DNA from: an uncultured Clostridia bacterium
Lineage (GTDB): Bacteria > Bacillota > Clostridia > Christensenellales > Aristaeellaceae
Direction: 5' to 3'
Assembly (NCBI GenBank): GCA_937886445.1
Contig: CALGBY010000058.1
Location: 1 to 16,776, forward strand
DNA length: 16,776 nucleotides
Part shown: positions 1 through 16,596 of the stretch, in pieces
Numbering within the stretch: the first letter of the stretch is position 1
How the letters are laid out: each line of letters begins with the position of its first letter
Made by a program: the position numbers and the translations under genes
Notes under the pieces: generated by a model
Database searches by the model: none
Told to the model about the DNA's origin: nothing
The model's input: the letters and a program-made list of their open reading frames with translations, nothing else

Positions 1-36
1 ATGCGGCTTGGTGCGTTCAAACTTCTGCTTTGCCAT
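1..36 (-). CDS. tuf: Elongation factor Tu, N-terminal 12 codons only (truncated by window edge)
   Basis: Minus-strand ATG at 36-34 is preceded by GGAGGA (rc of 45-50). The codons to the window edge read MAKQKFERTKPH, the canonical EF-Tu N-terminus. It lies directly downstream of fusA, as in str operons. Confidence 0.8.
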   Translation of the reverse strand, partial: MAKQKFERTKPH

Positions 37-67
37 TGTTATTTCCTCCGTTAATCATATTGATCGA

Positions 68-2143
68 TCAGTATCTCTGTCCGACGATCTTTTCGGAAAT
101 GCTCCTGGGCACTTCCTCATAGTGGTCGAACTGCATCGTGTACATGCCTCTGCCCTGAGTGCGGCTGCGCAGATCAGTGGCATAGCCGAACATCTCGCTG
201 AGAGGCACGAAAGAATGGATGCTCTGTTCACCCGTGCGGGGCTCGATGGAATCGATCCTGCCGCGGCGGGAGTTGAGATCGCCCACCACATCACCCAGAT
301 ACTGATCCGGAACGATGGTTTCCACCTTCATGCAGGGCTCAAGCAGCCGTTCCTCGGCCTTTTTGAGCGCTTCCTTGAACGCCATGGAACCGGCGATCTT
401 GAAAGCCATTTCGGAGGAGTCCACCTCGTGGTAGGAACCGTCCAGCAGAGTGGCCTTGAAATCCACCACCTCGTAGCCGCCCAGAGAACCGGCCTGAGCC
501 GCTTCCCGGATACCGGCATCGATGGGAGCGATGTATTCCTTGGGCACAACGCCGCCGACGATCTTGTTTTCAAACAGATAACCCTCGCCAGGGTTTCTGG
601 GCTCTATCTCGATCACGCAGTGGCCGTACTGGCCATGGCCGCCGGTCTGCCGCACGAAGCGGCCCTCCGCCTGGCACTTACGGGTGACGGATTCCTTGTA
701 GGCTACCTGGGGCTTGCCCACGGTGGCTTCTACCTTGAACTCCCGCATCAGTCGATCCACAATGATCTCCAGATGCAGTTCACCCATGCCGGCGATAATG
801 GTCTGGCCGGTCTCCTGATCGGTATAGGTCTTGAAAGTGGGGTCTTCCTCGGCCAGCCTCGCCAGCGCCAGCGCCATCTTGTCCTGACCGGCCTTGGTCT
901 TGGGCTCGATAGCGACCTGGATAACGGGATCCGGGAATTCCATATTTTCAAGCACGATGGGTGCGCTTTCATCGCACAGCGTATCGCCAGTCACGGTCTC
1001 CTTGAGACCTACCGCCGCGCCGATCTCGCCGGTGTAGACCTGGTCCACATCCTCACGGTGATTGGCGTGCATCATCACGATGCGGCTGAAGCGTTCACGC
1101 CTTCCCTTCGTGGAATTGTACACATAGCTGCCTGTCTGGGCCGTACCGGAGTAGACACGGAAGAACGCGAGCTTGCCCACAAAGGGGTCAACGGCGATCT
1201 TGAACGCGAGGGCGGAGAAGGGCTCGCTGTCGTCGGCATGACGAACAACTTCCTTTTCGCTGTCCCTGGGATCTGTTCCGGTCACGGGCTTGATATCCAG
1301 CGGCGACGGCAGATACGCAACGATGGCATCCAGCAGCGGCTGTACGCCCTTATTGCGGTAAGAAGAGCCGCACAGTACGGGCACCAGCCTGCATCTGACG
1401 GTCGCTTCGCGCAGAGTAGAGATGATCTCCTCTTCGGTCAGCTCCTCGCCGGCGAAGAATTTCTCCATCAGCTCATCATTCTGTTCGGCAATGGATTCCA
1501 GCATTTTATCTCTGGCTTCCTCCGCCTCAGAAAGGATGTCGGAAGGAATTTCTTCATCGCGGATGTCTTTGCCTTCCTCATCGTAGTAAACCTCGGCCCT
1601 CATCCTGACCAGATCGACGATTCCGCGGAAGTTGCCTTCCTTGCCGATCGGCAGCTCAATGGGCACGGCATTGGCATTCAGACGGCTCTTCATCATTTCC
1701 ACAACACGGTGAAAATCAGCGCCGGTGATATCCATTTTGTTTACATAGGCGATGCGGGGCACATTGTATTTGTTGGCCTGACGCCACACGGTCTCGCTCT
1801 GGGGCTCAACGCCGCCTTTCGCGCAGAACACGGCTACGGCACCGTCCAGCACTCGCAGTGAACGTTCTACTTCCACCGTAAAATCCACATGGCCCGGGGT
1901 ATCGATCAGATTGATGCGGTGACCCTTCCACTGGCAAGTGGTAGCGGCGGAGGTAATGGTGATACCGCGCTCCTGCTCCTCCTCCATCCAGTCCATCGTG
2001 GCGGCGCCTTCGTGCACCTCGCCCAGGCGATGCGTTCTTCCGGTATAGAAGAGGATGCGCTCGCTGGTGGTCGTTTTTCCGGCGTCGATATGCGCCATGA
2101 TGCCGATGTTGCGGACTTTTTCAAGGGGATGACTTCTTGGCAT
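68..2143 (-). CDS. fusA: Elongation factor G
   Basis: 691-aa ORF with GTPase motifs [17 protein letters not shown] and NKMD and full-length EF-G-like sequence. AGGAG RBS (rc of 2152-2156). Position is between rpsG and tuf. Confidence 0.97.
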
Positions 2144-3607: not shown

Positions 3608-3754
3608 GTGCAAAAGGCGCCGCAAATGAGCCCGCCGGTCGCTCGGCGTTTCATCAGAAGCCCTATGGAAGAAACGCCCCGTAAAGGGAAACAGAAAAGA
3701 GGCAATGAAATTAATGTGAAAAGATAGTGAAAAATATTATATATCTGTTATGTG

Positions 3755-3793
3755 CCATTAAAAGGCCGCCGCGGATCATTTCACCGCGGCGGC
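3755..3793 (-). terminator. Rho-independent terminator after the AraC gene / ABC operon
   Basis: Perfect 10-bp GC stem GCCGCCGCGG (3765-3774) / CCGCGGCGGC (3784-3793) with a 9-nt loop. On the minus strand it is followed by CTTTTAAT. It starts 15 nt after the AraC stop codon. Confidence 0.65.
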
Positions 3794-3807
3794 TTTCATC
3801 CGGCATC

Positions 3808-4716
3808 CTACATATAGGTGCCGTATATGCTTCTGAATCTGGTAGGCGTACAGCTGTGTATCTGACGGAAGATGCGGTTGAAGGTGGCAAGGCTGCGGAA
3901 GCCGGATTCCCTGGCTACCTCGGCCACGGGCTTTCTGGTGTGCAGCAGCATCTCATCCGCCACATTCAGCCTCCGCCGGTTCAGATATTCCACAAAGGTA
4001 AGGCCGGTAAAGGAATTGAAGGAGCGGGAAAAATAGAACCGGGAAAAGCCGGCGAAGGCCGCCACCTCTTCAAGCGTGATGTTTTTCCTGAAATTCTGCT
4101 CGATAAAGGTGATCGCGCTGTTCATCAGCTCCGGATTCACGCTCTGCTTCGCGCTCTCGCTGCCGGGAAGCTCTTCCTCGTTTTTCACCATCGCCAGCTG
4201 AGCGTACATTTCCATAAAGAACCCGTAGCAGCGGGTGTTCCACAGCAGGGGTCTCTCGCTGTAGCACTGAGCGCAGCGCGTCAGCGTATCCGCGATGGCC
4301 TCGGCGTTCTTATCCCCCGCCCGCAGCACGCGCGGCGTATCCATCCATTCCTTGAGCGGCTGAAAATCGCGCATGGTAAGCAGCGGATCCGGCTCAAAGA
4401 GAAAGAGCAGACGGGAGGAATCCTCGCAGGAGTTCATCGAGTGGGTGTGGTTGGGAGAAATGAACAGCATATCCCCCTTTGCAAGCGATATGCGCCTGTC
4501 ATCCACCATAAAGATCACCTCGCCCTTCCTGCAAAGGGCGATCTCGATGGCGCTGTGGCGGTGCGGGGCATAGTAATCCGCCTCGTCCGAGGGCCACACA
4601 CGCACCGAGGAATGCTCGGCATAGGTGATGTATTCCTGTGTTCCGTTCAGGATGCGGAAACCGTCCGGAAAGCGTTTGTTTGCTCCGGAAGTGTTCGCTC
4701 TGTCTTCTGCTGCCAT
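3808..4716 (-). CDS. AraC-family transcriptional regulator (cupin-like sensor plus C-terminal AraC-type HTH)
   Basis: 302 aa. The C-terminus (ITLEEVAAFAGFSRFYFSRSFNSFTGLTFVEYLNRRRL...ESGFRSLATFNRIFRQ) is a typical double-HTH AraC domain. The N-terminus has a cupin-like HRHSAIEI...G motif. GAGGAAAC RBS overlaps the end of the upstream permease gene (10-nt gap). Confidence 0.85.
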   Translation of the reverse strand: MAAEDRANTSGANKRFPDGFRILNGTQEYITYAEHSSVRVWPSDEADYYAPHRHSAIEIALCRKGEVIFMVDDRRISLAKGDMLFISPNHTHSMNSCEDSSRLLFLFEPDPLLTMRDFQPLKEWMDTPRVLRAGDKNAEAIADTLTRCAQCYSERPLLWNTRCYGFFMEMYAQLAMVKNEEELPGSESAKQSVNPELMNSAITFIEQNFRKNITLEEVAAFAGFSRFYFSRSFNSFTGLTFVEYLNRRRLNVADEMLLHTRKPVAEVARESGFRSLATFNRIFRQIHSCTPTRFRSIYGTYM

Positions 4717-11713: not shown

Positions 11714-11857
11714 GCAATGCTTTTTCGGAAGTTTCATGGAAAACAACGCAAAAAGAGGCCCGAAAACGGCAAAAACGGCTGCCGACATGTTCCGAAGGCA
11801 GCGGCGGCGCGTTTTCGGGCTCATTCGCGCACCGTATCCCGATTTCATGCCGCGCTA

Positions 11858-11886
11858 TGGTCAGAAGCGGATTTGTATGCTATAAT
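11858..11886 (+). promoter_or_regulatory. Candidate extended -10 promoter for the paralogue operon (TGcTATAAT)
   Basis: Perfect TATAAT at 11881-11886 with TGC at 11878-11880. Weak -35 TGGTCA at 11858-11863 (17-nt spacer). About 55 nt upstream of the first paralogue. Confidence 0.5.
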
Positions 11887-11941
11887 AGAGCGTAAGATGT
11901 TTCCGGCAAGCACTGCTTCCGGCTTATACAGGAGGACCGTC

Positions 11942-12601
11942 ATGAAAAAGTACCTTTGTCTGCTCGCCGTAATAGGGCTGCTGCTGCCCTCCGCGTGCTT
12001 CGCCCTGCAATTGAAAATGCCCGAAATGAGCGAGAAAAACAGTTATTCCTACGAAAACCCCGTGCTGGGCTATTCACTGCGCGTGCCGAAGGCGCTTGTT
12101 TCCCTGCCGGACAGCGATCTTGCGGAAATACTTGACAACGCGCACAGCAGAGCCGGGTTCGGCGAGGACGATTATCTGTACGATGTACGCATATGGGGCA
12201 TGGCCGCCTCCGCCTCCGATACACTGGTGCTTGAGGTCCAGCTGAAAAAGTGCACTCATACCGATTTTGAAACAGAGGTGGCAAACGCGCCCAACTACAG
12301 TGAAAGGCAGGAGGCGCAGCAGGCCGAACAGGGAAACGATGTAAGCATCACCATGCTGCACGACGGCATGCTGCGCGAGACCCCGGCGGGCACCATGCTG
12401 GAAATGGCCTGCGTATGGCACTATACGGACGCAGACGGCACCCCCCGCGATACCATGCATGTGTATTATGATTACTACTGCAACAGCATCGAATACTGCT
12501 TCGTTCTGGAAGCGCCCGAACGCCTTGTGACCCTTGAAGGCATGCAGAAACTGCTCGCAGACATCATGGAAACCGTAAGGATCGAAAATGTGATAGAATA
12601 A
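11942..12601 (+). CDS. Secreted protein of unknown function, paralogue 1 of 3
   Basis: Start moved to the ATG at 11942 (MKKYLCLLAVIGLLLPSACFA/LQL), preceded by AGGAGG (11930-11935). It has a signal peptide. Colinear similarity to the next two ORFs (LGYSLRxP, LKKC, LHxGxLRETPxGxMLE, YYDxYxNxIEY, IENVI). Confidence 0.85.
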   Translation: MKKYLCLLAVIGLLLPSACFALQLKMPEMSEKNSYSYENPVLGYSLRVPKALVSLPDSDLAEILDNAHSRAGFGEDDYLYDVRIWGMAASASDTLVLEVQLKKCTHTDFETEVANAPNYSERQEAQQAEQGNDVSITMLHDGMLRETPAGTMLEMACVWHYTDADGTPRDTMHVYYDYYCNSIEYCFVLEAPERLVTLEGMQKLLADIMETVRIENVIE

Positions 12602-12693
12602 ACGGCAGCACCGCGCGGATGAGGCCGTGCTCAGCGTGCCGAAGAGCCGCGCGATACTGCCTGAGGATCAATAAAGAAAGGAAAAGATCAGCC

Positions 12694-13365
12694 ATGAAAA
12701 GAAAAGTGACCGCCGCGCTCTCCGTTCTGCTCACCCTGTGCATGCTCCTTCCGCTGTGCGGACAGGCCCTGCAGGTGCAACTGCCCGAAGTGACGGAAAG
12801 CAATTCCTCGCCCTACGCGGATCCGGTGCTGGGATATTCCTTCCGGATCCCGGACTATCTTACTCCGCTTCCGGAGGAATATGAAAAGCTGCTCCTTGAC
12901 GAGCAGAACAAGGAGAAGGAATTCGGCGATGAAGAGTGGCACTATGATGTGCAGGCCTGGTTTACCCCCGTTTCCTCCGGCGAAATGCTGTTTTTTGAGG
13001 TAACGCTCAAAAAGTGCAGCAATGAAAGCTTTGAAAACGAGGTGGCGCAGGCCCCATACTATGCCGAAAACGCCCGGAAGCAGTTCAGCGAGGCCGGGCG
13101 GGATGCGCATATCACCATGCTGCATGACGGCATCCTGCGCGAGACTCCCGCGGGGCAGATGCTGGAGATCGCGGTCATCCAGGAGGAAACCCTTGAAGAC
13201 GGAACACAGTCCTCTGAGCTGTTCATTTACTACGATTTTTACTGCAACACCATCGAATATATCTTCGCGCTCACCGCGCCGTCCCGGCTGGTATCGTACG
13301 AAAGCATGCAGAAGCTGCTTGACAGCATCGTAAACACCGCCGAGATACAGCATGTGCTTGAATAA
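12694..13365 (+). CDS. Secreted protein of unknown function, paralogue 2 of 3
   Basis: Start at the ATG at 12694 (MKRKVTAALSVLLTLCMLLPLCGQA/LQV). The RBS (GAAAGGAAAAG) is weaker. It shares the motif set of paralogues 1 and 3. Confidence 0.85.
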   Translation: MKRKVTAALSVLLTLCMLLPLCGQALQVQLPEVTESNSSPYADPVLGYSFRIPDYLTPLPEEYEKLLLDEQNKEKEFGDEEWHYDVQAWFTPVSSGEMLFFEVTLKKCSNESFENEVAQAPYYAENARKQFSEAGRDAHITMLHDGILRETPAGQMLEIAVIQEETLEDGTQSSELFIYYDFYCNTIEYIFALTAPSRLVSYESMQKLLDSIVNTAEIQHVLE

Positions 13366-13399
13366 AAACGACATAAACGATCATAAGGAGGAAACACCC

Positions 13400-14089
13400 A
13401 TGAAAAAAACCGTATGCGCGATCCTTTCCCTCATGCTTGCCCTGCTCCCCGCCCTGTGCACCGCGGAGCTGAGCCTGACCATTCCCCATGTAACGGAAGA
13501 AAACTCAACGGAATACAGCGACACCTATCTGGGCTATTCCCTGCGCATCCCCGATTTCCTCGTCAAGGTCAACGACACCTACCTGAGGCAGTATCTTGAA
13601 AGCATGAACGAAGGCAAAACGCCGGACAGCGCGGACTATGTGTACGACAGCCATCTCTGGGGCACGCAGGTCAGCAGCGAAAGCGCGATGATATTTGAAA
13701 TACAGCTCAAAAAGTGCACCAATGAAAGCTTTGAAAAAGAAGTGGAAATGGCTCCCCGCTATGAGGAGATCGAAAACGCCATGCTGGAAGAAACCGGCAG
13801 CAGCACCCGCATAGCGCAGCTGCACAACGGCATCCTGCGCGAGACCCCGATGGGCACCATGCTGGAAATGGCCTATACCGTCAACTATCTGCTTGATGAC
13901 GGTTCCTCCTCGCAGGAGACCCATGTCTATTACGATTTTTACTATAACACCATTGAATATATCTTCCTGCTGGAAGCGCCCACCGAGCTGATCACGGTGG
14001 AAAGCATGCAGCAACTGCTCAGCGAGCTGATGCAGTATGTGCAGATCGAAAATGTGATCTCCGATACCGCCGCCCCCGCCGCCGCGTAA
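13400..14089 (+). CDS. Secreted protein of unknown function, paralogue 3 of 3
   Basis: Start at the ATG at 13400 (MKKTVCAILSLMLALLPALCTA/ELS), preceded by AAGGAGG (13385-13391). Same motif set, plus a short C-terminal DTAAPAAA tail. Confidence 0.85.
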   Translation: MKKTVCAILSLMLALLPALCTAELSLTIPHVTEENSTEYSDTYLGYSLRIPDFLVKVNDTYLRQYLESMNEGKTPDSADYVYDSHLWGTQVSSESAMIFEIQLKKCTNESFEKEVEMAPRYEEIENAMLEETGSSTRIAQLHNGILRETPMGTMLEMAYTVNYLLDDGSSSQETHVYYDFYYNTIEYIFLLEAPTELITVESMQQLLSELMQYVQIENVISDTAAPAAA

Positions 14090-14148: not shown

Positions 14149-15171
14149 GTGTGTAAGATAAAAAAAGCTTTGACCGTTCTGCTTGCGATCCTTGTTTTCT
14201 GCAATGTCCTTCCGGCATCCGCGAAAACCCCGAAAAAAAACATATATGCCTACTTCATCAACGGCAGAGAGATCGACCGGCTTGCGGAAGCGCTGCCGGT
14301 CCTGGTCTCATACGGAACGAACGCTGTCATTCTGGACGAATCTGTCTTTCATTACCGTACAGAAGCGCAAACCGCTGCTCTGTGCGCAGAACTCAAAAGT
14401 AAAGGCATCACTCCTTACATCCGGATACAGGTATGGTATAGGGATGATCATTGGATCTCGCCGCTCACCCAGCCCGGCTTTCCGGTATTCCGGCAGGATA
14501 TTGTCGATCAACAAAAAGCCGTCATCACAGACTACCTGAAGCTGGGCTTCTCCGGCATTGTGCTCGATGATGTTCTGTTTCCCGGAACAGCGGAAAAATA
14601 CGGAACGGAAAACGCGTGCAGCGCCATTACGGAAACGGTGAAGCAGCTTAATGAAGCAGCAAAGAGCACAGACCCGGATGCTGTTCTTGCCGTGATGGTC
14701 AAGCCCGACATTGAAGGGCGGAACAGGATTGATTACGGTCAGGATGTTGCGGAAATAAGCAAAAACGCGGATATCGTTATCCCGATGATGTACATCGATA
14801 TTGAGAGATGGTCCGCGAAAGAAATGACCCGGATGATCGGGAAATTCGTTGATACAATACAGCCGGGCACTAAACCGGTCGTCGCCCTCCATACATATAA
14901 CGCGCTCAATAACGACGAACCGCTTTCCTATCAAAAGCTGTTTGATGATGTGAAAAGCGCGGTCCGGGCCGGTTCAAACGGTGTTATGCTGTGGCAGCTG
15001 GGGCTGTCGGAGATCATTGATTTTACAAAGCTTTCTTCCATGCCCGGCACCGGCGATCATGCGCCGCTCGCTCTCCCCGCAGCAGCAGCGCTGCTGTCTT
15101 CCTGTGTGTTCCTTTGGCTTCTCTGCTTTGAACGCAGGCGAAGCCGGAAGGCACGGCAGATCCGTTTTTGA
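14149..15171 (+). CDS. Secreted glycoside-hydrolase-like TIM-barrel protein (GHL10/DUF4015-like by eye) with C-terminal cell-wall sorting signal
   Basis: GTG start 12 nt after GGAGGA (14132-14137). Signal peptide MCKIKKALTVLLAILVFCNVLPASA/K. The motifs GFSGIVLDDVLFPG and ADIVIPMMY resemble GH-like TIM-barrel families. The C-terminus is MPGTG, then about 25 hydrophobic residues, then ERRRSRKARQIRF. No terminator separates it from paralogue 3. Confidence 0.7.
   Translation: MCKIKKALTVLLAILVFCNVLPASAKTPKKNIYAYFINGREIDRLAEALPVLVSYGTNAVILDESVFHYRTEAQTAALCAELKSKGITPYIRIQVWYRDDHWISPLTQPGFPVFRQDIVDQQKAVITDYLKLGFSGIVLDDVLFPGTAEKYGTENACSAITETVKQLNEAAKSTDPDAVLAVMVKPDIEGRNRIDYGQDVAEISKNADIVIPMMYIDIERWSAKEMTRMIGKFVDTIQPGTKPVVALHTYNALNNDEPLSYQKLFDDVKSAVRAGSNGVMLWQLGLSEIIDFTKLSSMPGTGDHAPLALPAAAALLSSCVFLWLLCFERRRSRKARQIRF
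15040..15168 (+). other. Tripartite sortase-type sorting signal (MPGTG / hydrophobic segment / Arg-Lys tail)
   Basis: The last 43 residues are MPGTG-DHAPLALPAAAALLSSCVFLWLLCF-ERRRSRKARQIRF. The architecture equals an LPXTG signal, but the first motif residue is Met. Confidence 0.6.
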
Positions 15172-15245: not shown

Positions 15246-15285
15246 TTGTACCTCCCCGCGGCTCCCTCGTATGTATATGTGTCCG
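15246..15285 (+). promoter_or_regulatory. Candidate promoter plus shared motif upstream of the GG-LysM peptide gene
   Basis: TTGTAC (15246-15251), an 18-nt spacer, then the TATGTATAT region (15270-15278). The 19-mer TCGTATGTATATGTGTCCG (15267-15285) matches 16 of 19 positions of 16449-16467, upstream of the second GG ORF. Confidence 0.4.
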
Positions 15286-15347
15286 GCACAAAAGCCGGGA
15301 CAAAAAATACGAAAAACTGCCATACAGGCTGAAAAGGAGATACCAAA

Positions 15348-15602
15348 ATGGAAAACGCTGAGAAGATCATCAACATCATCACCGATGACGAACTGGAAAA
15401 TGTGAACGGCGGCAGCATGCCCAAGGAAGACCCCGGCAAAGGCTACAAGTGGTACCAGATCCAGCCCGGCGACAATCTGAGCCGCATCGGAAGCATCTAC
15501 CACATCAGCGTGGACAAGCTGATGGCGATCAATCAGGACCGCCGCGGGATCAAGGACAGGAACCATATCATTGCCGGGTTCTGGATCCGCGTGCCCCGGT
15601 AA
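15348..15602 (+). CDS. Double-glycine-leader peptide with a LysM-domain core (84 aa)
   Basis: AAAAGGAGA RBS 8 nt upstream. The leader MENAEKIINIITDDELENVNGG fits the GG-leader consensus at positions -15, -12, -11, -8, -7, -4, -2 and -1. The core YQIQPGDNLSRIGSIYHISVDKLMAINQ...IIAGFWIRVP reads as LysM. It is followed by a strong terminator. Confidence 0.8.
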   Translation: MENAEKIINIITDDELENVNGGSMPKEDPGKGYKWYQIQPGDNLSRIGSIYHISVDKLMAINQDRRGIKDRNHIIAGFWIRVPR

Positions 15603-15635: not shown

Positions 15636-15680
15636 CACGGCCGGCAGATCGGACTGATCCGCCGGCCGTGAATTTTTCTG
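15636..15680. terminator. Bidirectional rho-independent terminator between convergent genes
   Basis: Perfect 10-bp stem CACGGCCGGC (15636-15645) / GCCGGCCGTG (15661-15670). It is followed by AATTTTTCTGTTTTT on the plus strand and TTCTTTTAAT on the minus strand. Confidence 0.75.
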
Positions 15681-15684
15681 TTTT

Positions 15685-16209
15685 TCACACAAGACCGCGA
15701 AGACGCCTTTTCAGCGCGAGGGCGATCGGGATACCGGGGAAAAGCATCACAAAGGAATCAAGCGCCCACGCGGCCAGGGCGGTGGGGATCTTCAATTCCG
15801 GCCTCAGGCTGTACAGAACGCAGTCGATCACCGTTTTTACCGTGACCCCTGCCAGCATGGACAGCACGACGACTGCCGCCGCCTTCAGCCAGAACCGTCC
15901 AGACGGGGCATCCGCTTCCTTATACAGCACGCGTCCGCAGGAAAAGCCCACAATGGCGTTCATCACGATCCAGCCGAAAGCGATGCCGCGCTGGCTCATC
16001 AGCATGCTCTCGATCAACACGCCCGCCGCGCCGATGACCGCCGCCGGCACCGCGCCCAGATAGACCGCACCCACCGCCAGAGCGATATATCCCAGGTCCA
16101 GCTTGATATTGCCCGCCACCGGGATCTTCAGCAGCGTGGAAAGCACAAAATAGAGCGCGGTAAGCACGCCTGTCATCACAACTTTTTTCGTCTTCTTCGT
16201 ATTTTTCAT
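15685..16209 (-). CDS. Small polytopic membrane protein, ECF-transporter S-component-like (substrate unknown; folate/QueT-type size)
   Basis: 174 aa. Lys-rich N-terminus followed by about 5-6 hydrophobic helices rich in Ala/Gly (TGVLTALYFVLS..., LGYIALAVGAVYLGAVPAAVIGAAG...). Size and pattern are typical of solitary ECF S components. The family call is by eye only. Confidence 0.55.
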   Translation of the reverse strand: MKNTKKTKKVVMTGVLTALYFVLSTLLKIPVAGNIKLDLGYIALAVGAVYLGAVPAAVIGAAGVLIESMLMSQRGIAFGWIVMNAIVGFSCGRVLYKEADAPSGRFWLKAAAVVVLSMLAGVTVKTVIDCVLYSLRPELKIPTALAAWALDSFVMLFPGIPIALALKRRLRGLV

Positions 16210-16353: not shown

Positions 16354-16596
16354 GATAAAACGCGTGCCGCCGCGAAGAGCAACCCGGCAGAGCCTGCAAA
16401 CGCCCCTGCCCCCGCCCAAAATACTCAGTGTCCCTTTTCGCGTGTCCATCGTATATATTTATGTCCGCGGGGAAGTAAAAAAGATCGTGCACAGCCGATC
16501 TGCTGACGGCCCTTCGCCGTCTCATCCTGAGGACGGGCCGAAAGCGGCAAAAGAAGTAATAAATAAGCTGAAAACAGATAAAAGGAGAGAAAACAC

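Follow-up and report, generated by a model that had tools for sequence, protein, structure and literature searches.

A double-glycine leader joined to a lone LysM domain in uncultured Clostridia, and a possible regulon of double-glycine-leader proteins

The window analysed here is the whole 16,776-nt stretch of contig CALGBY010000058.1 (GenBank assembly GCA_937886445.1, forward strand) from an uncultured Clostridia bacterium of the family Aristaeellaceae, and its subject is a small gene, referred to below as the GG-LysM gene, whose 84-aa product consists of a double-glycine (GG) leader, a variable linker and a single LysM domain (Table 1). An earlier note on this DNA had proposed that the product is a free LysM module exported by a C39-peptidase ATP-binding cassette (ABC) exporter (PCAT), the type of machine that cuts GG leaders. 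The open reading frame (ORF) and the leader numbering given there are correct: the translation is as described, with I at -15, I at -12, T at -11, E at -8, L at -7, V at -4 and GG at -2/-1. The predicted mature peptide of about 62 aa starts with SMPKEDPGK and has an isoelectric point (pI) of about 10, the net charge being -5 in the leader (22 aa) and +5 in the mature part (62 aa). No hydrophobic Sec or transmembrane segment was found in the protein, in agreement with the earlier note, and the Kyte-Doolittle mean over 15 aa reaches no more than 1.05. Translation from the internal Met24 was considered and rejected because no Shine-Dalgarno sequence precedes this codon, most homologues have no methionine there and the leader shows conservation as protein.

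The leader shows the full motif of its class: GG at the end, an acidic residue at -8 and a hydrophobic one at each of -4, -7, -12 and -15. The predicted mature peptide behind it is small and cationic, as in class II bacteriocins. A strict regular expression for such leaders ([LIVM]x3[ED][LIVM]x2[LIVMA]xGG inside the first 45 aa) matched only one of the 81 ATG-initiated ORFs of the window, the GG-LysM ORF itself, and none of the 1,758 six-frame ORFs from 505 kb of unrelated loci. The search against leader models suggested by the earlier note gave a divided outcome: every match of the window protein was to a GG-leader family and aligned on the leader, and all of them were sub-threshold, namely TIGR01847 (15.2 against a cut-off of 15.7, just sub-threshold), Lactococcin PF04369 (15.6 against 23.1), Bacteriocin_IIc PF10439 (12.6 against 27.1) and the cerein-7B and lactococcin G-beta models. 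The curated GG-leader models (TIGR01847, PF10439 and PF04369) are very short or built partly on bacteriocin core sequence. The second GG-LysM copy in another locus (L002) passes the Bacteriocin_IIc gathering score (27.2 against 27.1). The AlphaFold model shows a disordered leader in which residues 13-17 (DELEN) form a short helix.

Leader and domain occur together in a family of at least 24 distinct sequences of 75-88 aa, 30-55% identical to the window protein, which were collected by an exhaustive HMMER search and by alignment-based searches of a protein collection, metagenome contigs and reference genomes. These relatives stem from uncultured Clostridia. An exact-sequence look-up of the window protein gave no match and a word-indexed single-sequence search returned one relative only (98% identical); the exhaustive HMMER search yielded chiefly multi-LysM proteins plus the small full-length relatives, and the reference-genome scan yielded one locus, in the rumen metagenome-assembled genome RUG11935 (uncultured Clostridiales). 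The GG is kept in 24/24 relatives, as are V/A/I at -4, L/M/V at -7 and L/I/M/V at -12, with Glu at -8 in 20/24 and Asn at -11 in 21/24. Since the mean pairwise identity of the leader core (0.51) is close to that of the LysM domain (0.47), and that of the linker is far lower (residues 23-31, 0.19), the leader is translated and selected as strongly as the domain; the claim of a genuine leader thus holds. The proposed architecture is also conserved, and none of the 24 homologues initiates downstream of the GG. All family leaders have a pI of about 4.1, and the predicted mature peptides have 59-69 aa and a pI of 9.0-10.3. LysM was matched by 24/24 relatives and the only non-LysM models matched were those of GG-leader families: Bacteriocin_IIc in 10/24, cerein-7B in 8/24, TIGR01847 in 7/24 and, more rarely, VP1 pheromone (4), lactococcin (3) and ComC (2).

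The core of the window protein is a genuine LysM domain by both profile and predicted fold, as had been read from the sequence. Its Pfam score (Table 1) compares with a gathering score of 20.9, and an AlphaFold model computed from the family alignment reaches a predicted local distance difference test score (pLDDT) of over 90 between about residue 23 and residue 84, with a beta-alpha-alpha-beta fold (strand 33-37, helix 44-50, helix 55-61, strand 79-83) and an extra small hairpin within the alpha2-beta2 loop. The top 24 Foldseek matches in the PDB were all LysM domains or LysM-containing proteins (probability 0.82-1.0), including OsCEBiP, SleL, Ecp6, MltD, AtlA, CtCBM50 and Mg1LysM, and a profile search of PDB sequences likewise matched LysM domains only, with Ecp6 (PDB 4b8v) on top. 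At the core positions G41, D42, L44, N62, I74 and G77 all family members have the same residue.

Table 1. Features of the GG-LysM gene and of the second GG-leader ORF in the window
Feature	Position	Strand	Remarks
-35-like element GTACCT	15248-15253	+	followed by the CGTAT box after 14 nt
-10-like element CGTATGTA (CGWA-type, ECF/sigma-I class)	15268-15275	+	conserved across unrelated neighbourhoods
5'-proximal stem-loop of predicted transcript	15278-15302	+	minimum free energy -12.1 kcal/mol, z = -4.08, 0/200 shuffles as stable
Shine-Dalgarno AAGGAG	15334-15339	+	8 nt before ATG1, direct reading of the sequence
GG-LysM gene	15348-15602	+	84 codons; translation MENAEKIINIITDDELENVNGG followed by SMPKEDPGKGYKWYQIQPGDNLSRIGSIYHISVDKLMAINQDRRGIKDRNHIIAGFWIRVPR and stop
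Double-glycine leader, residues 1-22 (MENAEKIINIITDDELENVNGG)	15348-15413	+	predicted cut after G22
Variable basic/Pro-rich linker, residues 23-35 (SMPKEDPGKGYKW)	15414-15452	+	N-terminus of predicted mature peptide
Single LysM (CBM50) domain, residues 36-83	15453-15596	+	Pfam PF01476, 34.5 bits, E = 2e-8
Hairpin terminator	15636-15680	both	T-runs on both sides; 15-bp GC-rich stem with 11 GC pairs at 15636-15670
Second promoter-like box (GTCCCT-N14-CGTATATA)	16430-16457	+	upstream of ORF2
ORF2, 59 aa	16597-16776	+	GG-leader-like motif LSLDDLAFVAGG at residues 36-47, 12-aa charged tail

The GG-LysM gene is monocistronic and comes with a promoter-like box, a 5' hairpin, a ribosome-binding site and a terminator of its own, the terminator hairpin being common to it and to the convergent gene for the S component of an energy-coupling factor transporter (15685-16209, minus strand). 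An Rfam scan of the window found no RNA family. The earlier note overlooked two things that enlarge the subject, the promoter-like box, which is shared with other genes, and a second GG-leader ORF (ORF2). The box pattern, found upstream of most family genes, consists of a hexamer (GTACCT, GTCCCT, GCCAYC or TCCATC), a spacer of 13-14 nt and CGTAT(A/G/C)(T/A/C)A. The CGTA -10 with its N13-14 spacing is conserved in about 15 sites, and equivalent -35-like hexamers at equal spacing were seen in L003, L009, L019, L023, L024, L025, L029, L035 and L089. The distance from the CGTAT element to the ATG is 67-96 nt in GG-LysM genes, 147 nt in ORF2 of the window and 59 nt in L019b. With a loose regular expression for the box, 10 of the 14 matches in the family loci sit 54-142 nt upstream of small GG-leader ORFs, two of which encode no LysM (ORF2 of the window and L019 3760-4080), and in the window no matches are both intergenic and correctly oriented except the two before GG-leader ORFs.

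The promoter consensus of the sigma-I class is C-----AAA-N13-14-CGWA (PMC4711584). The CGWA -10 and the 13-14 nt spacer of the box fit this consensus and the AAA triad is missing; its -35 (GCCAYC/GTACCT) has neither the AAA of sigma-I promoters nor the AAC of typical extracytoplasmic function (ECF) promoters. A stem-loop also follows 3-6 nt past the box in other loci, its sequence differing between lineages, and in 10/12 loci it is more stable than dinucleotide shuffles (z from -1.97 to -5.2). RNAalifold on a MAFFT alignment of these 5' hairpins gave no consensus structure because the stems are out of register in the alignment, and the hairpins were judged by per-sequence shuffle z-scores in its place. 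We infer that the box is the promoter of an alternative sigma factor and that the hairpin is a 5'-terminal stabiliser or a regulatory stem. In L026, an ECF-type sigma-70 family gene (21-392, plus strand; matches to Sigma70_r2, r4 and ECF models), cut by the contig end, stands directly upstream of a GG-LysM gene (457-696, plus strand), and its product is a candidate for the cognate sigma factor of the box. Two ORFs in L003 (93 and 65 aa) were not used as evidence, as they are 6 kb off and only weakly sigma-like.

Other types of control were also considered. A promoter for a sporulation sigma factor (sigma-E, -K or -G) was rejected since the invariant -10 is CGTA and not CATA, and the CATACA of the window is unconserved in homologues. 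Control of the LexA/YneA type was rejected given the absence of a transmembrane segment, sub-threshold scores and a different box. A divergent clade (L049 345-987 and L055 7160-10225) appears to be under a different, two-component style of control: its upstream regions carry TGTGACA direct repeats plus a TATGAT -10, and the GG-LysM gene of L055 is divergent from an operon whose products are a 201-aa unknown protein, a response regulator (HTH_3) and a sensor (His_kinase, PF06580).

Two ORFs behind the box encode GG-leader proteins of other kinds. ORF2 of the window has the sequence MKNTKLQKLFDYQIFSGNREIEKMYREAENRNAEALSLDDLAFVAGG followed by the highly charged tail VRSDEAKDEKQN; a Pfam search gave no match, and its sole NCBIfam match, YdgT, is far sub-threshold (18.6 bits against 101). 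Its close homologues P0161-P0163 keep the motif, with P0162 and P0163 differing in the tail, and upstream of P0163 (78% identical), which lies in another neighbourhood (L089), the box TCCATC-N13-CGTATATA is found. ORF2 is a putative co-regulated GG-leader protein and could be the long-leader precursor of a short secreted peptide. In L019, about 1 kb from the GG-LysM gene, the ORF 3760-4080 (plus strand; within 3681-4080) encodes a 106-aa Cys-rich (CxxC) protein that gave no match in a Pfam search; its leader ends in LTLLQMERAAGG and is followed by KRPKP, and the box GCCATC-N14-CGTAT lies upstream. This protein is apparently a third cargo type of the same regulon. Because of the shared box and of a second GG-leader ORF at the window end, a dedicated GG-leader regulon is the more informative reading of the locus.

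Eight neighbourhoods were compared: the window (16.8 kb), L003 (12.5 kb), L055 (20 kb), L002 (11.6 kb), L009 (8 kb), L014 (6 kb), L019 (4 kb) and L089 (7 kb). PCATs were sought by Pfam searches of all large flanking ORFs of L055 and L002 and by precomputed Pfam labels for the other loci. The earlier note had seen no obvious PCAT, immunity pair or regulator in the window, and none was adjacent to the gene there or in the seven other neighbourhoods, apart from the regulatory genes of L055 described above; no PCAT, immunity-like gene or recurrent partner was present in any of the eight, nor was the set of immunity, transporter and accessory genes that marks a class II bacteriocin locus. In each of them the GG-LysM gene is a stand-alone unit amid unrelated housekeeping genes, and the flanking genes are wholly different among loci (ECF-S component, SbcCD/transglutaminase, MatE, HAD and unknowns). 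Those of the window are ordinary chromosomal genes, including fusA, rpsG, rpsL, an AraC regulator, a sugar ABC importer, Sua5 and an alpha-amylase, together with three paralogous secreted proteins of no known family and a GH18/DUF4015-like protein.

The three paralogous genes stand in tandem (11717-14089, plus strand) and their products, about 245-295 aa long and secreted or lipoprotein-like, gave no Pfam match and have the motifs LGYSLR(V/I)P and LHDG(M/I)LRETP in common (LHNGILRETP in the third copy). They are followed by the gene for a secreted protein of 340 aa (14149-15171, plus strand) that is weakly similar to GH18/DUF4015 and ends in a hydrophobic tail. This gene is strain-variable, since a strain contig 98-99% identical to the window (L081) carries about 320 nt of other sequence in place of 14180-14940. 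At the other end, all ORF2-bearing contigs stop 0.2-0.7 kb past the right edge of the window, which suggests a repeat or variable region there; just past that edge, the longest extension (L084 215-947) encodes an ORF judged by eye to be HEPN/DUF86-like (containing IRGMRNLFPHDY).

Within the family itself, tandem arrays of two to three diverged paralogues occur in L022, L024, L029, L049, L002 and L003. In L003 (9600-9815; also in L004 and L006-L008) a second tandem GG-LysM copy lies directly upstream of the gene for P0008; it has a very short leader (beginning MAISNEELDAVGG) and an in-frame TAG, a state that is equal in several samples, and it is either a pseudogene or read through. Another contig (L082 1-335) is similar to the window only from the middle of the LysM gene (window position 15476), with unrelated sequence before it and with leader and promoter missing, and represents either a truncated-gene strain variant or an assembly chimera. 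There is no sign of a phage-borne family, since a scan of viral contigs gave only generic LysM proteins with no leader.

Taken together, these observations lead us to propose, with a probability of about 0.55, that the GG-LysM gene encodes the precursor of a non-catalytic, wall-binding basic peptide of about 62 aa that is controlled by an alternative sigma factor and exported by a PCAT. Transcription would be driven by an alternative sigma factor, of the ECF/sigma-I class to judge by the CGWA -10, and the gene would belong to a small GG-leader regulon. A PCAT-type ABC exporter, with its gene at another place in the genome, would bind the leader through its C39 peptidase domain, the precursor would be cut after Gly22, and the cargo would leave the cell through this exporter independently of Sec. 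Because no PCAT lies in any of the eight neighbourhoods, export and cleavage are steps that we infer. In PCAT1 of a Clostridium, the substrate is recruited through the leader alone and the cavity takes the whole cargo with no specific contacts (PMC8794836).

Once released, the peptide would bind the N-acetylglucosamine (GlcNAc)-containing glycan of peptidoglycan through its LysM groove and would coat the wall or occupy binding sites non-lytically. It might protect the wall of the producer against muramidases or, on the walls of the producer or its neighbours, compete with LysM-anchored autolysins. Promoters of the ECF/sigma-I class are usually linked to envelope signals. The biological role is the weakest step of this proposal; a non-lytic role in wall coating or site competition is favoured because of the missing immunity gene, the putative envelope-signal promoter class, the non-catalytic nature of LysM and the fact that the fungal LysM effectors, its closest stand-alone analogues, act in this way, and a classical killing bacteriocin appears less likely.

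Several points weigh against this proposal. No C39-ABC exporter was found in the eight neighbourhoods, which span 4-20 kb, and the leader of the window protein itself falls just under every curated threshold. A single LysM is usually a weak binder, so that function as a monomer is uncertain. The loose box expression gave 14 matches in 114 kb of family loci against 5.2 ± 2.3 in Markov simulations, an overall excess that is only modest, with the signal carried by positional association, and the expression was partly derived from the same loci used for scoring. Additionally, the sigma assignment consists of a motif resemblance and one adjacency, and the divergent L049/L055 clade lacks the CGTAT box and has a different promoter.

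Among other explanations, the product might be a true class II-like bacteriocin, a cationic LysM peptide that is exported by a PCAT and cleaved after the GG, and that kills or inhibits competitors, for instance by attaching to nascent peptidoglycan or lipid II or by obstructing septal hydrolases. The leader type is canonical for bacteriocins and pheromones, the mature part is small and cationic (pI 9.0-10.3), six loci hold tandem arrays of two to three diverged paralogues, the linker varies fast, and the L055 clade adjoins a histidine kinase and a response regulator as many bacteriocin loci do. This explanation would nevertheless predict partners that the eight neighbourhoods do not have, as no immunity, accessory or transporter gene is conserved there; LysM is a non-catalytic binding module, we know of no lethal activity of a lone LysM, and no precedent was found in the published literature. 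A killing peptide is thus considered unlikely. It is also conceivable that the protein is never exported, and that it binds cortex or coat peptidoglycan during sporulation as a cytoplasmic or mother-cell protein whose acidic N-terminus is an interaction tag, the likeness to a GG leader being coincidental or vestigial; the N-terminal LysM of SafA or SpoVID would be the parallel. LysM proteins with no signal peptide are normal in spore formers, the SafA CBM50 domain (7r1l) and SleL are among the fold matches, and CATACA lies upstream of the ribosome-binding site in the window. The SafA/ExsA LysM model (TIGR02899), which has the best E-value of the NCBIfam matches (2.3e-10), is also matched by 24/24 relatives, as is PRK10783 MltD; these TIGR02899 matches reflect generic LysM only, since all scores are far under the cut-off of 67.85 (the window protein scores 17.3 bits, and the maximum for it, P0008 and P0147 is about 35 bits). 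The full GG-leader pattern in 24/24 relatives, conserved like the domain, speaks against a spore protein, and so do the CGTA promoter described above and the occurrence of the same box upstream of unrelated proteins that have only a GG leader in common. Such a role seems improbable.

The least probable of the explanations weighed is that the leader is functional and serves another machine, either a different exporter that works with a stand-alone protease, C39-like or other, or a modification enzyme in the style of ribosomally synthesised and post-translationally modified peptides (RiPPs). GG/GA leaders also serve lanthipeptide and other RiPP systems, models for a triceptide RiPP (XyeA) and for lichenicidin matched the leader weakly, some members have Cys in the core, and the lack of a PCAT near any member inspected fits this possibility as well. 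Modification enzymes are not adjacent in any context, however, the Cys residues are unconserved, and the core, in which the sugar-binding positions are conserved, is a well-folded domain rather than a short modifiable peptide.

A wider proposal, which we put forward tentatively and at less than even odds, is that in some uncultured gut and rumen Clostridia one dedicated alternative sigma factor, acting through the box and the 5' hairpin, switches on scattered GG-leader proteins that are all exported by an unlinked PCAT. The unrelated cargos of such a regulon may include the folded LysM domain, the Cys-rich protein (about 80 aa) and the long-leader precursor, whose tail has 12 aa. To our knowledge, GG leaders and PCATs have been studied almost only for short bacteriocins and pheromones, and LysM as the Sec-exported anchor of larger enzymes. 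If the proposal is true, PCATs would be general exporters of small folded proteins, their cargo range would grow to a folded carbohydrate-binding domain, and free LysM peptides would be bacterial counterparts of the fungal LysM effectors, coating peptidoglycan or competing for it. The shared promoter box would provide a handle for listing the remaining secretome of this type in uncultured gut and rumen Clostridia, and the product of about 62 aa is small enough for chemical synthesis. Full-text literature searches on GG leaders with LysM or with ECF sigma factors turned up incidental co-mentions only, and both the GG-leader plus LysM architecture and the shared-box regulon are apparently undescribed so far.

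Compared with known systems, the GG-LysM precursor resembles those of lactococcin A, ComC and PCAT1-CtA in its acidic leader, which in this class has 15-27 aa with hydrophobic residues at -4/-7/-12, Glu at -8, GG and no Sec signal. Its cationic mature part is also similar in size to the cargo CtA of Clostridium thermocellum, whose leader ends at G23/G24 (PMC8794836). The cargo is a folded carbohydrate-binding domain, whereas those of the known precursors are amphipathic or pore-forming peptides or short pheromones; unlike the loci of class II bacteriocins, the gene has no adjacent transporter, immunity or accessory gene in eight contexts and, except in the L049/L055 clade, its box is alternative-sigma-like and does not resemble their usual two-component direct-repeat promoter. 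The closest likeness on the side of the cargo is to the fungal LysM effectors (Mg1LysM, 6q40; Ecp6, 4b8v), which are small, consist essentially of LysM only and bind GlcNAc polymers non-catalytically; Mg1LysM (78 aa, single LysM), one of the best structural matches, aligned to the window model with a TM-score of 0.57 normalised to the target and 30% identity. Since these effectors are eukaryotic, secreted through Sec and the endoplasmic reticulum, stabilised by disulfides and chitin-binding in a plant-pathogen setting, the likeness might show a possible mode of action and not membership in the group.

Among bacterial proteins, Bacillus subtilis YneA is also small with one C-terminal LysM as its sole recognisable domain, acts outside the membrane and is stress-induced. 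YneA has an N-terminal transmembrane anchor, is under LexA control and suppresses cell division in the SOS response, whereas the window protein has no hydrophobic segment and a different upstream box; the YneA model (NF010723) gave weak matches in 13/24 members, the best being P0147 (19.8 bits, E 0.00056, against a cut-off of 60). The spore-coat proteins SafA and SpoVID share with the family a Firmicutes LysM with no Sec signal, being made in the mother cell with no signal peptide, and in this respect the statement of the earlier note that LysM proteins normally use Sec stands as the usual case and not as a universal one; these are large morphogenetic proteins with extra regions, and none has a GG leader. 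On the regulatory side, ComX (sigma-X), which governs late competence and fratricide in streptococci, recognises a CG-containing -10-like box (TACGAATA) and switches on the CibAB GG-peptides together with the wall hydrolase CbpD, so that one alternative sigma factor governs both GG-leader and wall-targeting proteins. The likeness is one of concept: the two boxes have different sequences, the organisms are not related and the genes described here have no competence context. Set beside these systems, GG-LysM is apparently a GG-leader cargo class made of a folded peptidoglycan-binding domain, placed in what would be an alternative-sigma regulon of GG-leader proteins.

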